Below, in pieces: positions 11,447 through 19,869 of a stretch of DNA of 64,000 nt (the stretch's first letter is position 1; every line of letters starts with the position of its first letter). The position numbers and the translations under genes were made by a program. A model generated the notes under the pieces. The model worked only from the letters and a program-made list of their open reading frames with translations. It made no database searches and was not told the origin of the DNA. Location: sequence record OP745617, one strand, 5' to 3'. This DNA is from Escherichia phage F13.

Positions 11447-12907
11447 ATGAATAAAATATTAACACATAATTGGAAATTCATGTACCAGTTGAATCCTGCT
11501 TTAAAAGAAGTCTGGAAGACAAAAGCGCGATACAAAGTAATATACGGCGGTCGTGCATCTTCCAAATCGCACGATGCCGCTGGTTTTGCTATTTATTTGG
11601 CGGCAAACTTCAAATTAAAATTCCTTTGCGTTCGACAATTCCAGAACAAAATTTCTGAATCTGTATATACTCTATTAAAAGACAAAATAGAGATTTCTGA
11701 TTTCAAAGATGAGTTCAATTTATTAAAGAACTCTATTGAACATAAAAGAACTAAATCTGAATTTCTATTTTACGGTATCGCACGTAACGTTGATGAAATT
11801 AAATCAACAGAAGGTGTTGACGTCCTTTGGCTGGAAGAAGCGCACGCGCTTACTGAAGAACAGTGGGACATTATTGAGCCGACAATCCGTAAAGAAGGGT
11901 CCGAAATATGGATCATCTTTAACCCCGATGAAGAGGCCGATTTTGTCTACCAAAACTTTGTTATGCGACCGCCGAAGAATGCCATTGTTAAAAAGATAAA
12001 CTGGCAAGACAATCCATTTTTGTCGCAAACGATGCTGGACGTTATTGCAGGCATGTACGAGCGCGACCCGAAAAAGGCAGAGCACGTTTATGGCGGCGTG
12101 CCGAAGACTGGCGGCGATAAATCTGTAATCAACCGCGCATTCGTTAAGGCCGCGCTTAATCTCCACAAACACCCTACGCTGGGATGGAGTTTGTCAGGGT
12201 CTAACCGTATAGGCTTTGACGTAGCGGACGATGGCGACGACCTTAACGCCACTGCATTCGTTACAGGAAACGTATTGCGCGGCATCAAGACATGGGAAGG
12301 TCTGGAAGATGAATTGTTAAAATCGGCAAGCGGAGTTTGGAAAGATGCGCTTACATTTGGCGCTTCTATAACTTATGACGCCATCGGTGTCGGCGCTTTT
12401 GCTGGTTCAAAATTTGATGAACTGAACGAGTATGCAATACATGAAAATCCATCATTTCCAAGAATCGAATTTAATGCGTTCAATGCGCAAGGGTCTGTTG
12501 ATGATCCTGATGACGTTTTTCTTGAATTACCACACGTTGAAATACTCAATAAAGACCATTTCGCAAACATAAAAGCGCAAAAGTGGACTGAAATTGCAGA
12601 GAGATTCAGAAAGACATACGAATATGCAACTGGGCAAGCCGTATATCCGACTGATGAGTTGATTTCAATCGACACCGATGGCATACCAGAACTTGGAATT
12701 CCAGCTTGGACTACTGAAGAGATTGAGACGTTTCTTTTTGAGATGTCAGCGCCGCGCAAAGATACGTCTGTTCTTGGCAAGTTCAAAGTTGAATCTAAAA
12801 AGGATATGGCAAAGCGTGGAGTCAAATCACCTAACAAAGCGGACGCGGCAATCATGGCATTAATGAAACCAATCGTTGCAGCATCCGGCTTCTTCTCTAA
12901 CCTTTAA
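11447..12907 (+). CDS. terL: terminase large subunit (alternative start 11480)
   Basis: Walker A YKVIYGGRASSKSH, Walker B-like VDVLWLEEAH, size 486 aa and position at the head of the morphogenesis module. Confidence 0.85.
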   Translation: MNKILTHNWKFMYQLNPALKEVWKTKARYKVIYGGRASSKSHDAAGFAIYLAANFKLKFLCVRQFQNKISESVYTLLKDKIEISDFKDEFNLLKNSIEHKRTKSEFLFYGIARNVDEIKSTEGVDVLWLEEAHALTEEQWDIIEPTIRKEGSEIWIIFNPDEEADFVYQNFVMRPPKNAIVKKINWQDNPFLSQTMLDVIAGMYERDPKKAEHVYGGVPKTGGDKSVINRAFVKAALNLHKHPTLGWSLSGSNRIGFDVADDGDDLNATAFVTGNVLRGIKTWEGLEDELLKSASGVWKDALTFGASITYDAIGVGAFAGSKFDELNEYAIHENPSFPRIEFNAFNAQGSVDDPDDVFLELPHVEILNKDHFANIKAQKWTEIAERFRKTYEYATGQAVYPTDELISIDTDGIPELGIPAWTTEEIETFLFEMSAPRKDTSVLGKFKVESKKDMAKRGVKSPNKADAAIMALMKPIVAASGFFSNL

Positions 12908-12910
12908 CAA

Positions 12911-13150
12911 TCAAAGCATTCCGTGCTGAAGGTCTAGTTTTCTTGCAGCAAATGACCTGGCACGGAATCGCTTACCCGCCCTTACTGCCTGCCGAATCTT
13001 CTTTTGCATACACTTACGGTCAAAATCGTTGCGGTCAACGGCTTCGAGTAAATCCCGACGCAAAGCACCTAGTGTCGCCTTTTCGGATAATTCTACGCCC
13101 AGCGCGGCTGCAACGTCTTTCAAAACATCGAGTTCGGTTAACGTTCTCAT
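12911..13150 (-). CDS. hypothetical protein (79 aa, basic C-terminus)
   Basis: Minus-strand ORF coupled (ATGA) to the 13147-13563 gene, wedged between terL and portal. Confidence 0.4.
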   Translation of the reverse strand: MRTLTELDVLKDVAAALGVELSEKATLGALRRDLLEAVDRNDFDRKCMQKKIRQAVRAGKRFRARSFAARKLDLQHGML

Positions 13151-13563
13151 TTGATAATCCCCTTGATGTCTGATTCTGCCATAAAGATTGGAGTGCCGCC
13201 GCCAGGAACAATCGAGCGCGTTACTTTGTCGAACATATCGTTTTCTTCAACTTGAATACGATAAAATTTATTCTTGGATGAAGATGGGCACAATTCCATA
13301 AATTTACCAATGCCGCGAACGCATTCATCTTCAAAGTATACTGTTTCACCTTGAATGGATTCGATGTTTTCAACCGGATACACCTTGCGACCTAAAAGCC
13401 ATTCATCCATGGTCGCCTGCAACACGCTTCTCGCATCCAAAATCCAAGGGTCAACTGTGGCACCTTCATATCGCGCAGCAGTGGCTTTTGCCAGCTCTTC
13501 ATATTCGCATACGTTTACTACTTCGCCTTGATGAAGGACGACAAATACAATTGTTGTGCTCAT
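13147..13563 (-). CDS. hypothetical protein (138 aa)
   Basis: AGGAG RBS upstream of ATG 13563; opposite strand to the flanking structural genes. Confidence 0.5.
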   Translation of the reverse strand: MSTTIVFVVLHQGEVVNVCEYEELAKATAARYEGATVDPWILDARSVLQATMDEWLLGRKVYPVENIESIQGETVYFEDECVRGIGKFMELCPSSSKNKFYRIQVEENDMFDKVTRSIVPGGGTPIFMAESDIKGIIK

Positions 13564-13725: not shown

Positions 13726-16101
13726 ATGAAAATTCTTGGCATAAAACTCTGGGAGAAGACGCGACCAGAAGCCGAACCAGCGGAGATGCCGCCAGGCGAC
13801 CCATTGGCACCGTTTGAACGCCTTGAAAGGCGCGGCAGCGGTCAACGCTGGGAAAAGACTGAAAGCAATCGACCGACCTTTAAAACGGTTGATGACTTCC
13901 CTTTATATGAGCCTGATATTAACGGGGACGGTGTTGCAATCATCAAAGGTCGCTCAGTAGATTCAGCAACCGTATCCAAAAAAGTTATGGATAATGCCTT
14001 AAAGAACATCAGTTCAGAAGGGCAGGTGAATCCATACACAGTGCCTATTCAGTTGCAAAACTGGTACTTATCGCAATCATTTATCGGATATCAAGCTTGC
14101 GCCATCATCGCGCAGCACTGGCTAGTGAACAAGGCTTGTTCCATGGTAGGCCGCGATGCGGTCCGTAAAGGCTGGGAAGTCAAATCCAGTTCTGAGTCGG
14201 AATTGTCAGTACAGGCCAGCGAACGCTTAAAGCAAATTGATAAAGAATTTAACATCAAAGAGCACTTAGTTGAAGCCGAACGATTCAAGAATATTTTTGG
14301 CATCCGCGTCATCATATTTGATGTGCGCAGTGATGACCCAGAATATTATAGCAAACCTTTTAACATCGATGGTGTGACAAAAGGGTCTTATAAGGGAATC
14401 ATTCAGGTTGACCCTTATTGGATGATGCCATTCTTGACGTCTGAAAACACTGCAGACCCTGCGTCACAGCATTTCTATGATCCAGAATACTGGGTGATCA
14501 GCGGACAGCGTTATCATCGCAGCCACCTAATCATCTTGCGCAACGATGAGCCAGCTGATATTCTCAAGCCGACTTATATCTACGGCGGCATTCCTCTGAC
14601 TCAGCAGATTTATGAACGTATCTATGCCGCTGAACGTACCGCTAACGAAGCGCCATTGCTGGCGATGTCTAAGCGTACAACCACGCTTCGGACCGACGTT
14701 GACAAGGCGATTGCCAATGAGCGGTCGTTTGCCGAACGTCTGATGATGTGGATTAAGTACCGCGACAACTATGCAGTCAAAGTGCTTGGTCAGAAAGAAG
14801 AGATGGACCAGTTCGACATCAACTTGTCAGACTTCGACAGCATCATCATGAACCAGTACCAGCTGGTGGCCGCAATCGCAAAAGTTCCGTCGACAAAACT
14901 GTTAGGGACGTCACCTAAAGGCTTTAACGCCACTGGTGAGTTCGAAATGGTCAGCTATCACGAAGAATTGGAGACTTGTCAACAGCACGATTTGACGAAG
15001 ATTCTTGACCGCCACTATAAAATCCTTTTGAAGTCTGAAGGCGTGGAAGTCGACGTTAAAGTGGCATGGGAGCCAGTTGGTTCACTTACTGCTACTCAGC
15101 TTGCAGAGATTAACGACAAACGAGCGAATACTGGCAAGACTCTCATTGATGCTGGCGTAATCTCCCCTGATGAAGAGCGCGACCGCATCAAGGACGACAA
15201 AAACAGCGGCTACAACCGTTTGCCGGAAGATGCAGCAGAAGAAACCCCAGGGATGTCTCCAGAGAATATGGCACTGCTTGGCAAGTCTGCTGGTGAAGTT
15301 CTGCAAGGCAAGGCCGATATTGAACAGGCCAAAGCTGATGTTGTCAAGATGGGCGGCCAGTTCTATAGCGAGACTGGTATTATGCCGGAAGGTGCCGCGC
15401 GTGGTGAGTTGGCGGAAAACCCTGACAGGGCACCAGTTGAGATTAACATGGATGATACCGATGACGAATCAAGCCATCACGTTGATGTCCTAACGCAACT
15501 GAAAGAAGGTCTGGAGGGTATTGCTGACTATTACCTTAAAGAAGGTCAGGACGTGGATTTTGACCCTCAAAAAGATGCAAGGTCGGTGCAACCGTCTACG
15601 CTTCCAAGCGTAAAAGGAAATGTCGTGAACTTGCGACACAATGTAGGGAAGATGGATGCTGCATCGCTGCCTAAGATGAAGTTGCACGGGATGATTCTTG
15701 GTATTGAGAATCCTCGCAACAGCATTCGCAGGGGTAACAGCCTTGATGGTGAATGGGCAGTTAAGATGCCGCACCATTACGGATTTATCAAAGGCACCAA
15801 GGGCGCTGATGGTGATGAAGTCGACTGCTTTGTTGGACCAAACATGAAGTCGCCTAAAGTATTCATCATTAACCAAAATGATAATTATTCTGGCGAATTT
15901 GATGAACACAAGTGTATGCTTGGATTTGATTCAGCAGAAGAAGCGAAAGAAGCTTATCAGGCGTCATTTGGTAACGGTTGGAACGGATTTGACTCAATCC
16001 ACGAATTGGATGTAAACTCATTCAAGGAGTGGTTGAAGGGTGATTGCTCTCAAGCATATGGAGCACTCAACAATCCTACTAATTCACCGAAGCAAGGTTG
16101 A
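13726..16101 (+). CDS. portal protein with C-terminal inorganic-pyrophosphatase-like domain
   Basis: Large ORF directly after terL (AGGTGG RBS, ATG 13726); C-terminal ~150 aa carry GIENP…HYGFIKGTKGADGDEVDCFVG…GFDSAEEAKEAYQASF, resembling family I PPase (IEIP…YGFIP…DGDPVDVLV…GWENAEAAKAEIVASF). The portal call is from position and size. Confidence 0.6.
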   Translation: MKILGIKLWEKTRPEAEPAEMPPGDPLAPFERLERRGSGQRWEKTESNRPTFKTVDDFPLYEPDINGDGVAIIKGRSVDSATVSKKVMDNALKNISSEGQVNPYTVPIQLQNWYLSQSFIGYQACAIIAQHWLVNKACSMVGRDAVRKGWEVKSSSESELSVQASERLKQIDKEFNIKEHLVEAERFKNIFGIRVIIFDVRSDDPEYYSKPFNIDGVTKGSYKGIIQVDPYWMMPFLTSENTADPASQHFYDPEYWVISGQRYHRSHLIILRNDEPADILKPTYIYGGIPLTQQIYERIYAAERTANEAPLLAMSKRTTTLRTDVDKAIANERSFAERLMMWIKYRDNYAVKVLGQKEEMDQFDINLSDFDSIIMNQYQLVAAIAKVPSTKLLGTSPKGFNATGEFEMVSYHEELETCQQHDLTKILDRHYKILLKSEGVEVDVKVAWEPVGSLTATQLAEINDKRANTGKTLIDAGVISPDEERDRIKDDKNSGYNRLPEDAAEETPGMSPENMALLGKSAGEVLQGKADIEQAKADVVKMGGQFYSETGIMPEGAARGELAENPDRAPVEINMDDTDDESSHHVDVLTQLKEGLEGIADYYLKEGQDVDFDPQKDARSVQPSTLPSVKGNVVNLRHNVGKMDAASLPKMKLHGMILGIENPRNSIRRGNSLDGEWAVKMPHHYGFIKGTKGADGDEVDCFVGPNMKSPKVFIINQNDNYSGEFDEHKCMLGFDSAEEAKEAYQASFGNGWNGFDSIHELDVNSFKEWLKGDCSQAYGALNNPTNSPKQG

Positions 16102-16102
16102 T

Positions 16103-16954
16103 ATGGCTTTTAAAGCTTCGAAAAAACGTGAACGCCGCTCACCCGATAGAATCGGGCGCGGCAGTCCGATAATCCCATCCAACGCAATCGCGATGGCCTA
16201 TCGTCGTGAGATGAAAGGTCTTTGCTATGCGATGATTGACGACTATCAAGAAGGAATTGCTGAGTGGCTTGAAAAGAAGCAGGTGAAAAAATTCTTTGCG
16301 CAAGACTCTGCTGATTCAACTTTTCAAACCTTGATGAAGCGACTGCAACTGAAATGGGCAAAAGCTTTCGCCCGTGTCGGGTCAAAGATTGCCGCAGATT
16401 TCATCAAGTCAGTTGAAAAGGGTGCCACTTCTGCTACATTTGCAAGTCTTAAATCTGCAGGAATAGAAGCGCCAAAAGCCACATATAATAAATTCGTTGA
16501 GAACACTCTTAAAACAAGCGAGACGTTCAACACGACTTTAGTGACTAAGGTTGGCGAGGATATTCACAACAGGGTGTACGAAGCGGTGATGCTTTCGCTG
16601 ACTTCGCCAGACCCAGCGCAACAAGGCACGTCCGGTATTCAGGCGGCATTAAGGAATGTAAAACACTTCTCTGCAAAGCGCGTAGACCTTATTGCAAAAG
16701 ACCAAACGAGCAAACTTTATTGCGTATTAAGTGATGAAAGGATGCGACAGAATGGAGTCGAGGAATTTGAGTGGGCGCATTCAGGAGCAGGCAAAGAGCC
16801 GCGAATATCGCATGAGCATGTCGATGGAATGAGATTCAAGCTTGATGACAAACGCTTATGGGAAGTAGGTGGAGAACTTAAGTTCAAAAAGGGTGACATC
16901 GGTCCTCCTGGATGGGCGATACACTGCAAGTGCAGGAAAATACCAATTATCTGA
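16103..16954 (+). CDS. head morphogenesis protein (MuF/SPP1 gp7-like)
   Basis: ATG 16103 with AAGG RBS right after the portal stop; conserved position; weak motif recognition. Confidence 0.45.
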   Translation: MAFKASKKRERRSPDRIGRGSPIIPSNAIAMAYRREMKGLCYAMIDDYQEGIAEWLEKKQVKKFFAQDSADSTFQTLMKRLQLKWAKAFARVGSKIAADFIKSVEKGATSATFASLKSAGIEAPKATYNKFVENTLKTSETFNTTLVTKVGEDIHNRVYEAVMLSLTSPDPAQQGTSGIQAALRNVKHFSAKRVDLIAKDQTSKLYCVLSDERMRQNGVEEFEWAHSGAGKEPRISHEHVDGMRFKLDDKRLWEVGGELKFKKGDIGPPGWAIHCKCRKIPII

Positions 16955-16961
16955 GGTCATT

Positions 16962-17882
16962 ATGACGATACCAATCAACACATTCCCTCTATCTGGACAA
17001 ACTCCAGTCTTGCCTGCGGTGTATGCTAATGGCTTGGCAATTGTCTCAGAATTCACTTCTGATAAAAACTTGATTGTTCCACTGAGCCCGCCGCTTTCAT
17101 CAGGGTATAACTCAGTAGGCCAGTTCTTTATGATTGGCAATGATGGCGATTCGACCAGCAAGCCTAATCTGACATTGTCTGTACCTAAGATGAACATCAC
17201 CGACGTTCAAACTGGCTTGACTGCATCAACAATCACCATTGCTTTTGGAGAAGCAGTGATTATAGGAATGGAGTCTGGAGGGTCCAAGAATGCTGTCGCC
17301 GTTAAGGTAGTCAAATCCAGCGACAACCAATACACTTTACCAGCTGCGACGGCTTCCGTTCTCGGCGGCGTCAAAATAGGAAGCGGAATAAGCGTCGCAG
17401 GTGACGGTACAATTAGCGTAACTCAATACTCATTGCCGATTGCGTCAGCATCTACTTTAGGCGGCGTAAAGGTCGGTACAACTCTATCAATTGATGGTTC
17501 CGGTGTGCTTAACGCAGCAGCAAGCACCGTCCAGAATGCCACGAACAGTGTTAGCAATCCTCCAACCACTTTGGTTAATCTGGCAACCTTAAACCTTCCT
17601 GCAGGAAAGTGGCTTGTGACGGCAAGCCAATTGACCGTTGCAACTGCAGGCATTCAAGCGAATACCGGAATCACTGTAAAATTATCAACAAGCAATTCAG
17701 ATATTACGGATGATGCATTTACCATGTCAGCGGGTATTCGGGCTTCAGGACGTTTTGGCGGTAACGTCCCAACAAAAATGATTACTCTTGCCGCGCCTGG
17801 TAATGTGTATCTAAACTATCAGTGCACCGATGCGTTAACATCTACCGTTTACGGACAGATCACCGCAATTAAGCTGAACTAA
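16962..17882 (+). CDS. structural protein with tandem repeats (fibre- or decoration-like)
   Basis: GAGGT RBS; repeated blocks LPAATASVLGGVKIGSGISVAGDGTISV / LPIASASTLGGVKVGTTLSIDGSGVL. Confidence 0.5.
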   Translation: MTIPINTFPLSGQTPVLPAVYANGLAIVSEFTSDKNLIVPLSPPLSSGYNSVGQFFMIGNDGDSTSKPNLTLSVPKMNITDVQTGLTASTITIAFGEAVIIGMESGGSKNAVAVKVVKSSDNQYTLPAATASVLGGVKIGSGISVAGDGTISVTQYSLPIASASTLGGVKVGTTLSIDGSGVLNAAASTVQNATNSVSNPPTTLVNLATLNLPAGKWLVTASQLTVATAGIQANTGITVKLSTSNSDITDDAFTMSAGIRASGRFGGNVPTKMITLAAPGNVYLNYQCTDALTSTVYGQITAIKLN

Positions 17883-18424: not shown

Positions 18425-18453
18425 ACACAATACTTATTTGAGGGTGGATGCGA

Positions 18454-19869
18454 ATGCAAACGGCACGCGAAATTGACAAAAATGGATTCTTGACGATTAT
18501 GGGTTGTCCGATTTCGTCATTTGGCATTTTTGATTATTCTGCTGGTCAAGTTGGTCTTGATGGTGATCCGAATCGCATCGTAAAAGTCTATCGCCCTGAG
18601 TCAGCGGTGAAAGACCCCGAAGCGATAGATTCATTCAAAAATATCCCTTTCATCGACAATCACGAAATGCTTTCTGGATTTGAAGGTGATGAGGATAACA
18701 CAGCACCCGAAGAGTATGGCGTTGATGGCGTTCTGACTGGCAATGTTTATTATGACAAGCCATGGATGCGCGGCGACCTTAAAGTGTTTAGCCGTCGTCT
18801 GAAGAAGGCCATTGATTCTGGAAAGGTTGACTTGTCTTTGGGCTATGACTGTGAATTCATCATACAGTCTGGAGAGTTTGACGGGCAGCCGTATGAAGTG
18901 GTGCAGACAACTCTTCGCGGCAACCACATTGCTCTCGTGGACGTTGGTCGAGTACCAGGTGCACGGGTGCTGGATGGTCGTTGCTTTGACCATCTTTGTT
19001 TGACGACTGTAACACCATCCAACGAGGATTTAGACATGCCAAAACCGTTAAAAGGTAAAGCGCGTGATAATGCTGTTGAACAGCTGAAATCACTGATCCC
19101 TGCGCTCGAACAATTTCTGAACGAAGAGAGTACTGAAGCTGCTCATCAGGACGAAGTTGAAGTGAAAGCAGAAGAGAAGGACTCAACCGAAAATCGTGAA
19201 GAAGTAATGGTTGATCCAGAAGTCAAGGCAGAAGCAGAAGAAACCCCAGAAGGTGAAGAGAAGTTTGAAGTTGAAACTGAATCTCACGCTGGCGGCGAAC
19301 TTCCGCAATTGATCAGCCAAATCGAAGCACTTATTGCAAAACTGAAAGGTGGCGCGGTAGGTGATGAAGAAGAAGTTGAAGCCGAAGTCAAAGACGAAGA
19401 AGAAGTTGAAGTCAAGGCTGAAGATGTATCACCTTGCGACAAAGCTGAAGATGTGGTTAGCGGCCTGCAAAACAGCAACGTAAAGGGGGCTTCGGTCGAA
19501 AAAGATGACAAACCGACAAAAGCGGCGAAAGCGTCGCCAGGTCCAGCAAAAGGGGAACACTCAATGGCATCTGATTCAGCAGTTGCTGCTTTCTACGCTG
19601 ATTCTGCTCGTAAGAATAGCCTCTACCAGCGCCTGTCTAAAGTTGTTGGTGCCTTTGATCATGCAACTATGGACTCCAAGTCCGTAGCGAAATATGGCGC
19701 TAAAAAGTTAGGCTTGAAGTGCGTTGATGGTGCTGAGTTTGACGTGGTGGATAATTATCTGCGCGGCGTTGAGCACGGTCAGAAACAGCGTGTAGTCGCA
19801 AAACAAAAGGCCGCTGCGGATTCTGCAGCAACTGACGAAGCATTTGAAGCTTGGTTGAAAGGGGAATAA
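18454..19869 (+). CDS. putative scaffolding/prohead-processing protein with acidic central region
   Basis: GGGTGG RBS then ATG 18454; long Glu/Val/Ala-rich acidic stretch typical of scaffolds; position before capsid genes. Confidence 0.45.
   Translation: MQTAREIDKNGFLTIMGCPISSFGIFDYSAGQVGLDGDPNRIVKVYRPESAVKDPEAIDSFKNIPFIDNHEMLSGFEGDEDNTAPEEYGVDGVLTGNVYYDKPWMRGDLKVFSRRLKKAIDSGKVDLSLGYDCEFIIQSGEFDGQPYEVVQTTLRGNHIALVDVGRVPGARVLDGRCFDHLCLTTVTPSNEDLDMPKPLKGKARDNAVEQLKSLIPALEQFLNEESTEAAHQDEVEVKAEEKDSTENREEVMVDPEVKAEAEETPEGEEKFEVETESHAGGELPQLISQIEALIAKLKGGAVGDEEEVEAEVKDEEEVEVKAEDVSPCDKAEDVVSGLQNSNVKGASVEKDDKPTKAAKASPGPAKGEHSMASDSAVAAFYADSARKNSLYQRLSKVVGAFDHATMDSKSVAKYGAKKLGLKCVDGAEFDVVDNYLRGVEHGQKQRVVAKQKAAADSAATDEAFEAWLKGE

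Follow-up and report, generated by a model that had tools for sequence, protein, structure and literature searches.

The portal gene of Escherichia phage F13 lies in the head module of the stretch of DNA examined here (the window: 64,000 nucleotides (nt), record OP745617), together with genes for the large terminase, a Mu-F-like protein, a head-fibre-like protein, a DUF2213 protease-scaffold and the major capsid protein. Our concern is the C-terminus of the portal protein. The gene is a single open reading frame (ORF), beginning with the ATG at 13726 and ending with the TGA at 16099-16101, and the last part of its product is almost certainly a divergent inorganic pyrophosphatase (PPase)-fold domain, InPase, fused to the portal. 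The parts of the protein and the surrounding genes are collected in Table 1.

Table 1. Features of the portal gene and its neighbourhood (window coordinates; aa, amino acids; pI, isoelectric point; pLDDT, predicted local distance difference test)
Feature	Position	Strand	Remarks
Large terminase (terL)	11447-12907		
Two small genes (78, 137 aa; SP13_021/022)	12911-13563	-	Between terL and portal, opposite to head module
Portal-InPase fusion ORF	13726..16101	+	791 aa, 88.7 kDa; stop included
N-terminal extension, aa 1-106	13726..14043	+	Outside the modelled part of the homologous E217 and Pa193 portals
Portal domain (Pfam Phage_portal_3), aa 122-468	14089..15129	+	295.8 bits, E = 4e-88
C-terminal alpha-helical barrel, aa ~499-538	15220..15339	+	Approximate; boundaries inferred by homology; projects into capsid
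Acidic hypervariable flexible linker, aa 539-648	15340..15669	+	pI 4.4; 21 acidic, 10 basic residues
Internal ATG, Met643	15652..15654	+	Earlier candidate start; rejected
InPase domain (Pfam PF18823), aa 649-771	15670..16038	+	Divergent family I pyrophosphatase fold
Glu661	15706..15708	+	Equivalent of E. coli PPase E20 (low-confidence but consistent alignment)
Arg668	15727..15729	+	Equivalent of K29; Gly670 two residues on, in place of E31
Catalytic core Y685-G686...D695-G-D697-E-V-D700	15778..15825	+	Y55, D65, D67, D70; high-confidence hhalign core; 95-100% conserved
Strand motif D726-E727-H728-K729	15901..15912	+	94-100% conserved; probable D102/K104 equivalent
C-terminal tail, aa 772-791	16039..16098	+	Low model confidence; pLDDT < 50 for last residues
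Mu-F-like minor head protein	16103-16954	+	PF04233, 31.1 bits; phrog_324 'head morphogenesis'
Head-fibre-like protein	17130-17882 (ORF from 16869)	+	PF11133, 29.2 bits
DUF2213 (aa 7-174; PHROG 'head maturation protease') with acidic C-terminal part, scaffold fusion	18448..19869	+	

The portal and its C-terminal domain

In Escherichia phage vB_EcoM_SP13 (OP352608.1, genus Wifcevirus) the same protein, at 100% identity, is annotated "portal protein" (SP13_023); across 27 further Wifcevirus records the gene is 90-97% identical. The assignment as a portal rests on the Phage_portal_3 (DUF1073) profile, on homology to solved portals and on the nearby gene for the large terminase. The solved portals are the dodecamers of Pa193 gp19 (9b41, E = 3e-250) and E217 gp19 (8fvh, E = 4e-189), from Pseudomonas phages of the genus Pbunavirus: the homology runs the whole length, linker and InPase domain included, the C-terminal 170 residues also match Pbunavirus gp19 (E = 4.5e-50), and the gene order – terL, portal, MuF-like, then protease-scaffold – is shared. 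In the structures obtained by cryo-electron microscopy (cryo-EM) the E217 and Pa193 portals are modelled for residues 97-528 and 94-528 only, with a helical barrel pointing into the head; order in the E217 barrel depends on the presence of DNA, and Pa193 residues 529-765 are without density (PMC10329688, PMC11456595). The alignment of the deposited E217 chain to the F13 portal starts at aa 107 and ends at aa 538, the barrel segment (aa ~499-538) being the last stretch that matches the modelled E217 and Pa193 portals. A C-terminal extension into the capsid lumen along the DNA axis is likewise found in the portals of P22 and Sf6, and E217 and Pa193 have such a barrel; in F13, however, the extension runs beyond the barrel to a disordered acidic linker – in which lie an amphipathic helix of weak conservation and an R-[ST]-x-x-P-S motif – and a globular enzyme fold, instead of stopping as a coiled-coil tube.

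Evidence that this terminal domain is a PPase relative came from profiles, predicted structure and profile-profile alignment. The Pfam profile PF18823 ("InPase") matches aa 649-771 at 156.6 bits (E = 4e-46; gathering cut-off 26.8) over model positions 12-135 of 135. For aa 633-791, AlphaFold2 modelling from a 16-sequence alignment gave a confident structure (pLDDT 88.9, predicted template modelling score 0.82), and fold searches with it predict a PPase fold, a beta-barrel like that of oligonucleotide/oligosaccharide-binding proteins: PPases alone top two independent searches, with a clear gap before the next match, and family I pyrophosphatases make up all 50 matches that Foldseek listed from the PDB (best E = 2e-4, TM ~0.45). 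A profile of 163 InPase sequences was also aligned by hhalign, both to the E. coli PPase alone and to 120 enterobacterial PPases; the E. coli sequence used differs from database entry P0171 at three non-catalytic positions. This pairs MPHHYGFIKGTKGADGDEVDCFVG with the core segment of E. coli PPase at a probability of 90-93%. The confident alignment is restricted to the YG...DGDxVD segment, the enterobacterial homologues all being at least 82% identical and so offering too little diversity.

Could the resemblance be a chance match of motifs? The classical PPase model, PF00719, stays below its cut-off (18.3 bits with the full protein and 20.8 bits with the domain alone, against 23.5), its alignment is confined to aa 679-703 (model positions 32-57 of 153), and identity to solved PPases is merely 8-21%. 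Against this stand the match to the dedicated family model, the hhalign core and the undivided outcome of the fold searches, which together indicate a true, divergent member of the fold and leave the chance explanation a negligible probability. In NCBIfam, a search found no InPase model and a sub-threshold portal family as the sole match.

A sequence-only reading of this ORF had proposed a PPase-like domain, either fused to the portal or encoded by a separate gene hidden in frame. Every motif it quoted is present in the translation, and the three metal-binding Asp that it saw paralleled in family I PPases are D695, D697 and D700, which the confident hhalign core equates with D65, D67 and D70. 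The profile search and the structure prediction that it called for gave the PF18823 match and the confident PPase-fold model, and fusion is now backed by profile, fold, conservation and the evidence for a single polypeptide set out below. One of its pairings does not hold: GFDSAEEAKEAYQASF, the AEEAKEAY helix, had been matched to the last helix of E. coli PPase, but the model has a further strand and helix after it.

One polypeptide

The gene encodes one portal-linker-InPase polypeptide. A single ORF is retained in all 28 Wifcevirus records, and five distant portal-InPase proteins (P0018, P0022, P0024, P0026 and P0028) share portal and domain; their linkers vary greatly in sequence and length, the frame always being preserved. 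Comparison with three Wifcevirus genomes (~92-94% identical) showed changes that are overwhelmingly synonymous in every segment: against Mansfield, synonymous and nonsynonymous changes number 93:0 in the portal core, 29:3 in the linker, 30:2 in InPase and 11:1 in the N-terminus. There is no compositional signal of horizontal acquisition in the InPase domain (GC content 0.434, third-position GC 0.463, both inside the range of the window).

The alternative – a separate PPase gene hidden in frame, initiated at ATG 15652 and yielding a free InPase of ~17 kDa beside or instead of the fusion – draws on the purine-rich, Shine-Dalgarno-like GGGAAG immediately 5' of that ATG, on the stand-alone InPase proteins known in other phages, and on an excess of InPase spectra in virions (79%; see below) that would be compatible with an additional free copy. 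GGGAAG, however, abuts the ATG with no spacer; the position of Met643 is Leu or Gly in some portal-InPase relatives; purifying selection acts on the linker as it does on the remainder; and linker peptides, among them GNVVNLR (aa 631-637) just upstream of Met643, are detected in virions. A trypsin-resistant portal core would explain the spectral excess equally easily. A hidden gene is thus highly improbable, and the internal start that had been proposed from the sequence is discarded. P0001, a seeming stand-alone homologue of 212 aa that might have been taken as evidence of a split gene, starts at base 3 of a 1181-bp contig and is a truncated portal gene at a contig end; the next gene follows 1 nt past its stop, as in F13.

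The active site

The conserved polar active-site residues of E. coli PPase are E20, K29, E31, R43, Y51, Y55, D65, D67, D70, D97, D102, K104, Y141 and K142. The pair of catalytic metals is bound by D65, D70 and D102, and the water that attacks is activated by D67; K29, Y55 and K104 hold the attacked phosphate, and R43, Y141 and K142 the leaving phosphate. A literature search on these classical roles gave nothing usable.

Conservation was read from an alignment of 163 InPase domains taken from the best matches (portal numbering throughout). W677, Y685, G686, D700, Q717 and E727 are conserved in 100%, E661, R668, D695, D726, K729 and Y744 in 99%, G670 in 97%, D697 in 95% and H728 in 94%; the position of K767 is basic in 94%, and D719, opposite E. 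coli D97, is Asp in 57% only. The acidic metal-binding residues of the type I site are thus kept (E661, D695, D697, D700, D726 and E727). Outside the confident core the alignments are of low confidence, but they agree with one another and with the predicted order of strands in equating E661 with E20 and R668 with K29, and in placing G670 where E31 would be; the DEHK strand (D726-K729), from its place in the strand order of the model, most plausibly corresponds to D102/K104. The full classical set of polar residues is not retained. Profile alignments place a deletion of about five residues, with low-confidence flanks, over E. coli V41-M45, which includes R43, and assign no confident counterpart to Y51; Y744 and K767 are candidates for the places of Y141 and K142.

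The InPase domain is also shorter than E. coli Ppa (~127 against ~175 residues for the PF00719 family I enzyme), has extra invariant residues (Q717, H728, W677 and Y744), and is fused to a structural protein, whereas Ppa is a free cytoplasmic enzyme. From conservation we judge it probable that InPase is an active, divalent-metal-dependent phosphoanhydride hydrolase. The pattern – catalytic machinery retained, leaving-group pocket remodelled – would fit a phosphoanhydride whose leaving group could be something other than orthophosphate: with R43, part of the leaving-group phosphate site, probably absent, the substrate may be pyrophosphate (PPi), although a nucleotide-like molecule that bears a pyrophosphate is no less likely.

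The domain in virions

Virions of vB_Eco4M-7 purified on caesium chloride were analysed by liquid chromatography and tandem mass spectrometry (LC-MS/MS) by Necel et al. 2020 (PMC7048862). The portals of vB_Eco4M-7 and F13 differ at 6 residues out of 791, with one of these inside the domain, and we mapped the 20 published portal peptides (559 spectra) onto the protein. They span aa 12 to aa 789. Spectra from aa 1-106, aa 107-538 and the linker (aa 539-648; four peptides) number 40, 39 and 41, respectively, and the remaining 439 (79%) come from InPase and tail (aa 649-791; seven peptide sequences, six distinct tryptic). Among the latter are the catalytic-core peptide GADGDEVDCFVGPNMK, MPHHYGFIK (263 spectra), LHGMILGIENPR (140 spectra) and the tail peptide GDCSQAYGALNNPTNSPK (aa 772-789). 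The same peptides recur in ECML-117, the second phage of that study. The presence of both domain and linker peptides in purified preparations places both in mature virions, and for the InPase domain we regard this as very likely indeed. The excess of InPase spectra may stem from a trypsin-resistant portal core.

One peptide, TGIMPEGAAR, was considered as the mark of a natural cleavage site and rejected: it follows Glu549 in F13 and SP13 but Lys549 in vB_Eco4M-7, and is therefore tryptic there. At the other end of the protein, the Pa193 paper reports that LC-MS did not detect the first 93 portal residues, which also lack density and may have been cleaved off, whereas Wifcevirus virions do yield N-terminal peptides (aa 12-32 and 45-53); N-terminal processing of the portal possibly differs between the two genera.

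InPase in other genomes

The InPase domain was defined by Iyer, Burroughs, Anand, de Souza and Aravind in 2017 (J Bacteriol, PMC5512222), who described it as lacking the extra beta-hairpin of structurally characterised PPases, cited a portal fusion (BcepF1.124, YP_001039808.1), and proposed injection together with action on a nucleotide-like substrate or clearance of PPi. The family, the way it relates to family I PPases and the portal fusion in this phage lineage have thus been on record since 2017 and are covered by Pfam entry PF18823; the fusion is not a new discovery. The F13 domain is a direct member of the family, with the same signature, the same phage and virion context and no architectural difference, in another genus (Wifcevirus). 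What we add is the connection of virion mass spectrometry (MS) to the domain – a link of public virion proteomics that was not found in the literature searched – and the residue-by-residue comparison with E. coli PPase. A search for PB1-like phage proteomes likewise found nothing specific.

The family is large (11,274 cluster representatives at E <= 1e-3, and 9,407 at E <= 1e-10). By tblastn the domain occurs in 461 phage records: 294 from Pseudomonas, 70 from Vibrio, 26 from Escherichia, and others that include Burkholderia BcepF1 and Serratia MyoSmar. Among the matches listed, the carrier genes are annotated as minor head protein, portal, virion protein, DNA methylase or hypothetical.

The contexts in which InPase occurs agree with the picture of polyvalent proteins drawn in PMC5512222, in which two or more domains of distinct activity share one polypeptide and, in the phage type, are packaged in the capsid. 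F13, with one structural and one enzymatic domain, corresponds to the simplest, portal-fusion case cited there; two relatives carry a second enzymatic domain after InPase, an ADP-ribosyltransferase in P0022 and a type IB topoisomerase in P0026. These two share, directly after InPase (aa ~770-800 and ~780-800, respectively), the motif DFKE[GS][DE]HPRAxNGxFG, possibly a conserved junction or processing motif between cargo domains. Of the 164 InPase proteins examined, 49 are at least 2,000 aa long; the large ones also carry 2H phosphoesterase, GNAT, MuF_C, SNF2 helicase, RadC and ART-PolyVal domains, and P0036 (3902 aa) has the order GGDEF cyclase, InPase, RadC/JAB, ART-PolyVal, with the PPi-producing cyclase directly upstream of InPase. 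P0019 (1116 aa) has two tandem InPase domains. Genuine stand-alone InPase genes (232-241 aa) lie in P1-like darA operons on two contigs of ~70 kb (L002, 8001-8726; L003, 8001-8699), in the order holin/LydB, DarA_N, a 283-aa protein, InPase; L003 also has a gene with a GmrSD_N domain nearby. In phage P1, the products of the darA operon are head proteins that are injected. Stand-alone proteins and polyvalent proteins of 2,000-6,000 aa, which have no portal context, show 94-100% conservation of the active-site residues, the general-base equivalent D697 and DEHK included.

A possible role at the start of infection

A central issue is what an enzyme fold is doing on a portal. On balance we lean towards a hydrolase that is carried in the capsid on a portal tether and acts at the start of infection. 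The acidic linker, ~110 residues long, would leave the C-terminal barrel carrying the InPase domain; with the barrel directed into the head, some 12 enzyme domains would lie inside each capsid, just above the portal channel if homologous structures are a guide, and the portal would double as packaging anchor for the enzyme cargo. Judging from its architecture and neighbours, the domain would act as infection begins, as do other phage effectors packaged in virions, and release from the portal would be needed before it could act in the host. Delivery into the host is the more doubtful part: we think it possible, but short of an even chance. The ADP-ribosyltransferase Alt of T4, the antirestriction proteins DarA and DarB of P1, and MuF-fused toxins are likewise carried in the head and anchored through a head- or portal-associated module; here, in contrast, the portal itself does the carrying and remains in the capsid, so that delivery would need proteolytic release. 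The F13 polypeptide is without a processing peptidase domain, and no targeting or cleavage signal for release of the domain was identified in it. Purely by inference, the sole candidate for such release would be the DUF2213 protease-scaffold encoded three genes downstream.

Several observations weigh against a capsid-borne hydrolase that acts in the host. Fully extended, a tether of ~250 residues would reach ~900 Å, against ~1300-1500 Å for the tail apparatus: a tethered domain cannot reach the cytoplasm, and release is therefore needed. Yet all mapped virion peptides, those of the linker included, are fully tryptic, with no sign of cleavage. The virion proteomics that the sequence-only reading had suggested as a check shows peptides from all regions of the portal, domain included, and no sign of processing, but bottom-up MS establishes neither covalent continuity nor stoichiometry. 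The active site is also incomplete. Gly stands at the E31 position (97%), R43 is deleted or variable, and the alignments assigned no confident counterparts to Y141 and K142, so that hydrolysis of PPi could be weak or absent. A literature search found no enzymatic activity reported for any InPase domain, nor any paper linking pyrophosphatase to these virions. Finally, twelve enzymes could supply only ~1% of the PPi turnover of a growing cell (a rough estimate), and host PPase is abundant; this makes bulk clearance of PPi implausible and favours a role that is local, or a substrate that is nucleotide-like and scarcer than PPi.

Two other roles need to be set beside this one. The domain might work while attached to the portal, in the producing cell or in the capsid, either late in infection and during assembly, removing PPi or nucleotide by-products locally, or as a tethered enzyme of the lumen. 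The short tether fits such a role, as do the fully tryptic peptides from every region of the protein in mature virions; the cyclase directly upstream of InPase in P0036 is consistent with local removal of PPi next to a nucleotidyl-transfer reaction. The terminase, however, releases ADP and phosphate, so no source of PPi is evident at the portal, and host PPase already handles bulk PPi. Moreover, the sister architectures with an ADP-ribosyltransferase or topoisomerase IB after InPase, and the stand-alone genes in operons for injected P1 head proteins, indicate action on host targets. We consider tethered action unlikely, though it deserves more weight than the proposal that InPase is a structural module or pseudoenzyme: a plug, a spacer, or a module above the barrel that binds Mg or phosphate, contacts DNA, and organises, retains or senses it. 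The domain does sit where portal barrels and internal cores contact DNA, the dependence of barrel order on DNA in E217 is suggestive, several classical PPase residues are missing, and the domain is highly abundant in virion MS. But its active-site residues are conserved in proteins that have no portal context, which fits catalysis better than a portal-specific structural role, and a domain of pI 5.3 on a linker of pI 4.4 is too acidic for DNA binding to be favourable. A purely structural role therefore seems to us rather improbable.

Returning to the capsid-borne hydrolase, a more specific version is that InPase is no PPi scavenger of the housekeeping kind but a specialised first-wave enzyme with a new, nucleotide-derived pyrophosphate substrate, which would be freed from its twelve tethers on ejection and would weaken host immunity or reprogramme the host. 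We hold this to be speculative and, as a whole, unlikely. Candidate substrates would include alarmones, immune signals derived from ADP-ribose and 5'-triphosphate ends; the machinery for metal, nucleophile and electrophilic phosphate would be kept, in a pocket without R43 and E31 and with the invariant Q717, H728 and Y744. If so, the portals of the Pbunavirus/Wifcevirus therapeutic lineage would double as a scaffold for effector delivery. Wifcevirus was isolated on E. coli K-12 only once resident defences had been removed (PMC11990801), and an earlier study reported a cycle complete in 3-5 minutes; a fast cycle and defence-dependent isolation could make a virion-borne first-wave enzyme experimentally tractable.

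Whatever its substrate, the domain exposes a gap between computational and experimental knowledge. It went unrecognised in two cryo-EM atlases of therapeutic phages: these high-resolution virion structures left the ~240 residues of linker and domain unexplained, and the word "pyrophosphatase" is absent from both papers (PMC10329688, PMC11456595). Genome annotations name the protein "minor head protein" or "portal". Across the PB1-like/Wifcevirus lineage, therapy phages E217 and Pa193 included, each virion would carry ~12 copies of a probably active phosphoanhydride hydrolase, and a virion-borne pyrophosphatase could show whether portals deliver effectors.

Neighbouring genes

The ATG of the Mu-F-like gene lies 1 nt past the portal stop codon. 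MuF proteins carry effector domains in other phages; that of F13 is bare. The head-fibre-like protein has an internal near-repeat (YTLPAATASVLGGVKIG / YSLPIASASTLGGVKVG), and the orthologous gp38 ranks with the most abundant proteins of the virion MS. No Pfam match was found for the products of the two small genes between terL and the portal.

Over its full length the DUF2213 protein is homologous to Pa193 gp24 (9b40_G, E = 5e-111), whose deposited name is 'scaffolding protein'; the F13 protein resembles a protease-scaffold fusion, whereas the Pa193 paper treats gp24 as scaffold only. It is represented by 28 peptides in vB_Eco4M-7 virions. One further profile, phrog_30637 (length 1119), a family of unknown function, matches both the portal and the DUF2213 protein, with portal aa 260-514 aligned to profile positions 2-260 and DUF2213 protein aa 40-170 to positions 776-898; a portal-protease fusion thus apparently exists in some phages.

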